A DNA stretch of 29,740 nt, from NCBI GenBank assembly GCA_964016885.1, contig CAXHJY010000464.1, forward strand, positions 1 through 29,740, written 5' to 3'. This document shows, one piece after another, positions 16,501-16,705 of this stretch; position 1 is the first letter of the stretch, and each line of letters opens with the position of its first letter. The position numbers and the translations under genes are program-made. This stretch comes from Eledone cirrhosa (Eukaryota). Below the pieces are notes generated by a model. The model ran no database searches and was not told the origin of the DNA. It saw only the letters and a program-made list of their open reading frames with translations.

Positions 16501-16705
16501 GGGCGTTAAGCAAAAATGTAGAGGCGAGAGTGGATGGTTTTAATTGTTTTGGTGTGTTGTTAATTTGTTTGTTTGTTAATGGCAGCAATGGGAGTTTGTG
16601 CAGTGGGGTGATAGTGGAGGGTGGTGCTGGGTGATAGCTCGAATGTTTTTTTCCAGTTCTTTTGCCAGATTCATTATGGCTAAAAAAGAGGAAGAAGTTT
16701 CCTGT
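13569..16705 (-). CDS. LINE ORF2: apurinic-like endonuclease plus reverse transcriptase, with one frameshift near 13995
   Basis: APE motifs NAQG, ETHL, YRPP, GDFN, LDL, SDH. RT motifs [35 protein letters not shown]-terminus [11 protein letters not shown]...DKFL continues in another frame (13569-13982). The frame is open from 16705; the supplied start at 16588 is TTG. Confidence 0.92.

Follow-up and report, generated by a model that had tools for sequence, protein, structure and literature searches.

How does a LINE make its enzyme when the reading frame that encodes it has no start codon ahead of the endonuclease? Expression of the second protein from a bicistronic LINE RNA is settled in few models, and in those by reinitiation: L1 and SART1 use reinitiation or UAAUG stop-start coupling to give a separate ORF2 protein, according to the passages cited from PMC2881922, PMC10275272 and PMC5009743. 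An earlier note on this DNA had described the well-studied LINEs in these terms, in agreement with the cited parts of the L1 and SART1 reviews (PMC2881922, PMC10275272). It had also likened the ORF1/ORF2 junction of the element described here to a retroviral gag-pol −1 frameshift site, from which ORF2 might be made as a fusion. The −1 overlap and the first of two slippery heptamers withstood our analysis, whereas folding gave no 3′ stimulator and the second heptamer proved not to be conserved. From sequence comparison, we consider it probable that −1 ribosomal frameshifting at U_UUU_UUA (16687-16681) yields ORF2 fused to ORF1.

A two-ORF LINE between TA arrays

The window (the whole 29,740-nt stretch that was analysed) is animal DNA, consisting mostly of TA and CA microsatellites, and probably resembles cephalopod genomes. 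It holds a full-length two-ORF copy of a CR1-group LINE, 4.37 kb long, on the minus strand from ~17848 to 13481. Its limits were set from the ORFs and the flanking tandem arrays (5538-13483 and 17849-22439), and the 5′ limit is approximate. TA microsatellite borders the element on both sides (13481, 17849), reflecting target preference or, in a window that is mostly microsatellite, chance. The element ends in a short structured 3′ UTR (13481..13568, minus strand; fold z −3.09, with 0 of 200 shuffles as good) that closes with two copies of a 10-nt unit (13481-13501) and no poly(A). A short tandem-repeat 3′ end with a structured 3′ UTR and no poly(A) is a feature of the CR1 group, and the element thus has a CR1-type 3′ end. 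It also has a CR1-type ORF2, with an N-terminal APE endonuclease and a reverse transcriptase (RT), and RNase H is absent from the Pfam matches. We provisionally take the element to belong to the CR1 group from this architecture and from its motifs; the RT tree contains unannotated loci only. Elsewhere in the window, fragments at ~3000-3500 and 28963-29739 (−) resemble ORF2 pieces of what we presume to be RTE-type LINEs. Three copies of one short repeat (2330-2455, 11649-11775 and ~23560-23690), which share a translated stretch and each lie beside microsatellite, are likely a SINE or a LINE 3′ end. An ORF2 with APE and RT, exchangeable ORF1 modules and a short tandem-repeat 3′ end are likewise described for CR1, L2, Crack, Daphne, Kiri and Rex1 in the parts of two CR1-group surveys cited here (PMC13343379, PMC4120745), the first of which, in the part cited, notes poly(A) only in Zenon.

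ORF1 (16576..17730, minus strand) runs from an ATG at 17730 to a TAA at 16578-16576 and encodes 384 aa: a Myb/SANT-like N-terminus, polyQ, a P/T/S-rich linker, two CCCH-like fingers and a short C-terminal helix that begins with Phe-Leu. The Myb/SANT-like stretch (17509..17706) is a weak match to PF13837 (E 0.0023, 18.7 bits, short of the 27-bit cut-off). The first CCCH-like motif (16975..17054) has C-x8-C-x4-C-x3-H spacing and no Pfam match; the second (16810..16889) aligns with the last finger (C..C..C..HL.GT) in ORF1 of five relatives. A word-indexed protein search found no homologue of residues 220-383, a search of viral contigs for relatives returned one short irrelevant match only, and the combination of Myb/SANT and CCCH in ORF1 was not found in the parts of PMC13343379 and PMC4120745 covered here.

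The ORF2 frame (13988..16705, minus strand) spans 905 codons from stop to stop and encodes a linker, the endonuclease and the RT. The endonuclease domain, counted from the N of NAQG (15839..16507), matches PF03372 and PF14529, and its profile matches LINE-1 endonuclease chains with E 5e-13; the RT domain (14222..14953) matches PF00078 with E 2e-30. NAQG (N67) and ETHL (E103) align with LNING and QETHL of a solved LINE-1 endonuclease and are presumably part of the active site. The claim that ORF2 has no ATG before the endonuclease was correct: the first in-frame ATG, at 16264 (residue 148), lies beyond both motifs and 312 nt past the ORF1 stop. A protein started at residue 148 would therefore miss part of the active site, since N67 and E103 precede it. 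The junction also contains no UAAUG-type stop-start overlap.

This copy is broken near the end of ORF2, a lesion on which the earlier note was silent. The rest of the protein, with a motif of 11 residues that recurs in the ORF2 consensus of relatives, lies in another frame (13569..14018, minus strand), and no Pfam family was found in this C-terminal piece. The break is a one-base loss in a short homopolymer (13990..13996). Parts of the element occur in 20 of the 24 sequencing-run entries listed, of which small shares were kept out of the evidence and none is an RNA run by its record, and we compared the contigs of four runs, the RNA label of two being a guess. In three of the four, contigs have one extra letter behind 13992 (depth 312 of 406 in X1, 303 of 574 in X15 and 1631 of 8529 in X16), while X14 covers the element thinly and gave nothing. 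The break at ~13992 is either a mutation or an assembly error. Contig depth in X1 reaches 5,000-11,000 over 16568-16915, against ~80-670 elsewhere; this peak may be due in part to A-rich cross-matches at 16740-16795, and a short high-copy derivative is possible.

The junction and its conservation in relatives

Frame analysis bore out the description of the junction. The ORF2 frame opens after a TAA at 16708-16706 (16706..16708), lies −1 to ORF1 and has 130 nt in common with it. Slippery heptamers have the form X_XXY_YYZ, where Y is A or U and Z is not G (PMC3561942, in the part cited). Both heptamers that had been pointed out are in this phase of ORF1: T_TTT_TTA at 16687-16681 (16681..16687, minus strand), which encodes Phe349-Leu350 six codons downstream of the TAA, and A_AAA_AAC at 16651-16645 (16645..16651). 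ORF1 has no in-phase heptamer in its 347 upstream codons and two in the 41 codons of the overlap. Hence, the junction has two elements of a viral −1 frameshift signal: ahead of the ORF1 stop, a heptamer of this form in 0-frame phase, and a downstream ORF in the −1 frame that overlaps ORF1 and stays open beyond the shift site.

We looked for the same arrangement in related elements. An ORF2 alignment search of metagenome and MAG contigs yielded 160 loci. In each of the two collections the best 80 of 416 were confirmed, and for metagenomes the search extended to 2 of 64 parts. Five MAGs supplied 11 further loci, six of which repeat earlier ones. The full ORF2 alignment was used, an APE-only alignment being too variable for a locus search. 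All are eukaryotic LINEs carried along in metagenome or MAG assemblies; the occurrence of such contigs in many prokaryotic MAGs (L082-L161) points to host contamination.

Nine elements, including that in the window, share the CCCH type of ORF1 or its C-terminal tail. Among the eight relatives, six have T_TTT_TTA at the same Phe-Leu, L141 has T_TTT_TTG, whose final G places it outside the eukaryotic consensus, and L084 lacks the Phe-Leu; its overlap begins instead with A_AAA_AAC, located 7 codons beyond the −1 stop. The eight Phe-Leu elements are thus the window element, L002, L003, L004, L005, L114, L141 and L166. In a protein alignment of six of the eight ORF1 tails (L004 and L166, truncated or fused, were left out), the Phe-Leu falls in one column. 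All eight have TTT followed by TT, and seven have the final A, while most flanking columns agree in just 3-5 of 8. The base before TTT is T in every case, although the codon to which it belongs encodes Ser, Asn, Pro, His, Thr or Leu. RT identity among these elements is 36-54%, and silent sites should therefore be saturated. At sites that had first been picked by a heptamer scan, T_TTT_TTA occurs in 6 of the 7 Phe-Leu relatives, as compared with 10 of 135 other Phe-Leu pairs from 30 loci (binomial p 1e-6, window element excluded). The first heptamer is thus conserved beyond protein constraint. A joint synonymous probability of 4e-15 was also calculated and is not relied on, since it assumes independent sites and codons.

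The reading frames are arranged alike. Between the site and the Asn of the endonuclease, 48-141 codons of the −1 frame pass without a stop, whereas 7-16% of codons in the same frame are stops upstream (p ≤ 0.012 in each of eight testable loci). The nearest upstream stop in this frame is 1-7 codons from the site (1-6 in six relatives) in all except L166, in which ORF1 runs into ORF2 in one frame; this nearness of the upstream stop is suggestive at most (p 0.2-0.5 per locus). Five of the seven Phe-Leu relatives have no Met between the heptamer and the endonuclease Asn, and L005 and L166 have one. The conservation check proposed in the earlier note was therefore passed by the −1 overlap and by the first heptamer (6 of 7, the seventh ending in G), and failed by the second, which is not common to the Phe-Leu relatives: no second in-phase heptamer was found in the overlaps of L002, L003, L004, L005, L114 or L141. 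In the window element, A_AAA_AAC is either incidental or a back-up site. We conclude that the first slip site is real and conserved, and most likely functional.

In a quick RT tree with SH-aLRT support only, the window element groups with L002, L003, L004, L005 and L084 (SH-aLRT 99), with L114, L141 and L166 on a branch of their own (98). The presence of the site on both branches suggests that it travels with the CCCH/Phe-Leu ORF1 module. Such a distribution fits the reticulate evolution of ORF1 described for the CR1 group in the parts cited of PMC13343379 and PMC4120745.

Could ORF2 be translated separately, either from a start that needs no AUG or by reinitiation once ORF1 has ended, with the CUG at 16585 (7 nt ahead of the ORF1 TAA) as one candidate start? 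In-frame near-cognate codons before NAQG are available (ATC 16612, CTG 16603, TTG 16588, CTG 16585, ATT 16564 and TTG 16513), and separate initiation requires no RNA stimulator at the heptamer. AUG-independent translation of L1 ORF2 has been described, and the AUG of mammalian L1 ORF2 can be replaced by other sense codons (PMC1965478, PMC5009743, in the parts cited). However, such initiation leaves unexplained both an in-phase heptamer conserved at the nucleotide level and a −1 frame that is open exactly up to that heptamer. None of the near-cognate codons combines a purine at −3 with a G at +4, and the absence of a UAAUG-type overlap counts against reinitiation. We therefore consider separate translation an improbable source of ORF2, although non-AUG reinitiation may be an added route alongside frameshifting. 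As in L1 and SART1, the RNA would be bicistronic and the translation of ORF2 would depend on that of ORF1; the window element differs from both in lacking an AUG and in having a 130-nt overlap and a conserved slip site (L1 and SART1 as described in the passages cited above).

The earlier note had also observed that the junction makes a good splice acceptor. In that event, the T-run and the following AG would serve as a 3′ splice site, and a spliced RNA would join an AUG-bearing part of ORF1 to ORF2. The pyrimidine tract (fraction 0.71 over 14 nt) and the AG at +6 are indeed present in the window; in all, 6 of the 8 Phe-Leu elements have their AG at +6, whereas that of L003 is at +8, and 6 of 7 TTA sites are followed by G, forming an AG acceptor. 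Neither the tract, the AG position nor the intron phase is kept in relatives, however. The upstream pyrimidine fraction is just 0.14-0.36 in L003, L114, L141 and L166, AG occurs within 14 nt upstream in L005, L114, L141 and L166, the first AG of L141 comes at +30, and L003 would need another intron phase. The G after TTA equally begins the codon for the Glu, Asp or Ala that comes next in the helix, and an acceptor has no need for a T-run in one codon phase. On the donor side, we found no GTRAG in 1,067 nt of the window ORF1, and in-phase GTRAG donors in one of the eight elements. Splicing is distinctly improbable. The AG at 16681-16680 is used by none of the 15 joints listed from the contigs of the four runs, two of them RNA by a guessed label.

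A further reading is that this copy derives from a single fused ORF, its −1 offset being due to an indel or to faulty assembly, with heptamers present by chance. This copy does have a one-base homopolymer loss at ~13992. Among relatives, P0052, P0065, P0102, P0146 and L166 run from ORF1-like sequence into the endonuclease in a single frame; these are indels in dead copies or natural single-ORF forms. One low-depth X1 contig (record 6; 87% identical) crosses the junction, where it has 22 gap letters and a net difference of 8 bases; it could represent either a decayed copy or a form with both ORFs in frame. On the other hand, seven relatives from unrelated assemblies have the −1 overlap in common, and beyond the site ORF1 continues in frame 0 through a conserved amphipathic helix to its own stop. 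In the comparison of four-run contigs that exposed the lesion at 13992, both junction runs are free of indels as far as 12 of the 19 indel rows show. We regard an indel as extremely unlikely to account for the junction. In favour of a conserved slip site, a diverged X15 contig cannot be aligned over 16525-16657, realigns for 32 nt from 16658 to ~16689, a span that takes in the first heptamer with its 3′ flank, and retains the upstream −1 stop in its loose end.

Downstream RNA and the predicted mechanism

Viral −1 frameshift sites also have an RNA structure, either a stem-loop or a pseudoknot, that begins 5-9 nt beyond the 3′ side of the heptamer, and the window element does not. The only stem that had been noticed there (GCCA...TGGC; 16664..16680, minus strand), directly after the heptamer, is real and as weak as supposed: it has four base pairs and −4.4 kcal/mol, has no counterpart in relatives and is not a credible stimulator. 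The 91 nt after the heptamer fold no better than shuffles (z 0.12), and no structure was detected 5′ of the site (z −0.82) or 3′ of the second heptamer (z −0.73). There is no 3′ hairpin in the window element or in six Phe-Leu relatives (z −1.2 to +1.3 for the five folded, with L084; L004 and L141 were not folded), and a crude scan for H-type pseudoknots found none better than shuffles in any of the nine CCCH elements. Thus, the site resembles a retroviral gag-pol frameshift site without the 3′ structure, and is half of the gag-pol signal rather than the full cassette.

The likeness to HIV-1 gag-pol is otherwise close. Both have U_UUU_UUA encoding Phe-Leu, followed by G (here in 6 of 7), with a structural ORF upstream and an AUG-less enzyme ORF in the −1 frame, and both have a second putative slippery site downstream, 38 nt away in HIV-1 and 36 nt in the window element (PMC3561942 and PMC6547452, for HIV-1 in the parts cited). 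They differ in that the LINE and its close relatives have no 3′ stem-loop; moreover, this is a non-LTR element with APE and RT and with no protease to cut a fusion, and its frameshift is a prediction from sequence.

In the mechanism that we propose, the majority of ribosomes would complete the 384-aa ORF1, and a minority would slip back one base at Phe349-Leu350 and enter the −1 frame. Shifted ribosomes would then read a 60-codon low-complexity linker, the endonuclease and the RT. The predicted product comprises 350 ORF1 residues, the 60-residue linker, APE and RT, or ~1,390 aa in an intact copy. Such slippage would give a high ratio of ORF1p to ORF2p and would link the enzymes to ORF1p in the way that Gag-Pol is tethered to Gag. 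Since no RNA stimulator is predicted, the slip is likely to be low-level, or aided by something that folding misses. The HIV-1 heptamer without structure gives ~0.1% frameshifting (PMC3561942, in the part cited), and low output may suffice for a LINE. Candidate aids are a scarce Leu-tRNA for UUA, as reported for HIV-1 in the part cited of PMC6547452, a bound protein, as in the protein-stimulated frameshifting of PRRSV (PMC5009743, in the part cited), or the nascent chain. Retention of U_UUU_UUA at 36-54% RT identity with no downstream structure would suggest either an unknown stimulator or useful low-level slippage.

A conserved slip site would be a third route for ORF2 expression, with an exact position, and predicts a Gag-Pol-like fusion in the CR1 group, the dominant retrotransposon in most vertebrates according to the part cited of PMC13343379. 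If the prediction is true, the annotated ORF2 start changes in many consensus elements, and retrotransposition assays for the CR1 group would be built differently. There are partial precedents among non-LTR elements. The Dictyostelium elements TRE5-A and TRE3-A are two-ORF APE-type LINEs whose ORF2 requires a −1 frameshift, as stated in the passage cited from a review (PMC5911963); they differ in being amoebozoan, in targeting tRNA genes and in having a C-terminal zinc finger. In Drosophila HeT-A, a frameshift is needed to express a non-LTR gene, but the shift takes place within a gag-like ORF, and HeT-A has no reverse transcriptase of its own (PMC5009743, in the part cited). That frameshifting review, in the part cited, mentions HeT-A, TART and L1 as its only non-LTR elements. 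The words frameshift and overlap are absent from the main texts of the CR1-group surveys PMC13343379 and PMC4120745, and there is nothing on CR1 frameshifting in the parts covered of PMC1925062, PMC11835228, PMC5006619, PMC11203168 and PMC1965478. No slippery site is described for CR1-group LINEs in the literature searched, which excluded most pre-2000 and subscription papers and Repbase Reports; frameshifting may have been proposed in the first descriptions of CR1, T1/Q or TRE, or in Repbase Reports.

Possible recoding signals in a wider LINE set

Heptamers in slip phase extend beyond the CCCH elements. Across 30 LINE loci with a −1 overlap, the overlaps contain 25 heptamers in slip phase, as against 3 and 4 in the other phases, whereas the upstream ORF1 sequences contain 20, 22 and 21 by phase (Fisher p 5e-9; the related loci are not fully independent, and the p values here overstate certainty). 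At least one in-phase heptamer is present in 22 of the 30 overlaps, and eight have no strict heptamer. As a control, 12 +1 overlaps have no heptamer in ORF1 phase across 347 codons (p 0.025). Dropped before the count were L091 (a near-duplicate of L092), L064 and L130 (no overlap), L166 (an in-frame fusion in its contig) and L017 (ORF1 end broken; T_TTA_AAC-stop). L004 was added by hand, and L100 (T_TTA_AAC-stop), called +1, entered the control with no overlap codons. The phase bias is seen in several branches of the tree. Reading across the −1 loci by eye, we saw no clean association between an absent Met and a present heptamer. An FF[RSI] motif upstream of the endonuclease (8 of 35, against 0.7 in shuffles) was dropped as proof, about one-third of its rows having a misplaced anchor.

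The phase bias also bears on whether the fusion is made by the ribosome at all. Polymerase slippage on the T6 or A7 run could add a base to the RNA and give a near-identical fusion; it would require no 3′ structure, and the homopolymer runs are conserved. A slipping polymerase ignores codon phase, however, and yet the overlap heptamers are distributed 25:3:4 and all eight T-runs are in the phase for tRNA slippage. Runs of six bases are, moreover, short for polymerase slippage. We consider this explanation highly unlikely and retain −1 ribosomal frameshifting.

Three more distant loci (L014, L089 and L028) have the classical layout, in which a heptamer and the ORF1 stop are followed at a short distance by a strong hairpin (z −2.6 to −3.3). 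Elements with an esterase-type ORF1 (L091, L092, L028, L017 and L100; L014 and L089) end in T_TTA_AAC plus stop, or have T_TTT_TTA two codons before the stop; no strong 3′ hairpin was found in L091 or L092. In five others (L009, L010, L013, L016 and L039), which have long −1 overlaps and no 3′ structure, A_AAA_AAC encodes Lys-Asn-Leu in ORF1 phase.

In thirteen loci, ORF1 and ORF2 are in frame with a single stop between them (L012, L022, L024, L036, L037, L040, L083, L093, L096, L097, L111, L118 and L167). All 13 lack a Met before the endonuclease Asn; the stop is TGA-C in 7 of the 13, and TAG CAA CTA in L012, both of which are leaky-stop contexts. By analogy with gammaretroviral gag-pol, this arrangement suggests that these loci may use readthrough. 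It is quite possible, although we advance it tentatively, that CR1-group LINEs all make ORF1-ORF2 fusions by retrovirus-style recoding. This would comprise a −1 shift in lineages with a −1 overlap (U_UUU_UUA, U_UUA_AAC or A_AAA_AAC), readthrough in single-stop lineages (no Met before APE in 13 of 13, UGA-C in 7 of 13) and 2A StopGo in single-ORF lineages, with the CCCH lineage slipping without RNA structure, possibly through the ORF1p zinc fingers acting in trans.

Among the loci collected, L059, L123, L140, L144 and L145 are single long ORFs in which a 2A-like D-I-E-x-N-P-G-P lies upstream of the endonuclease.
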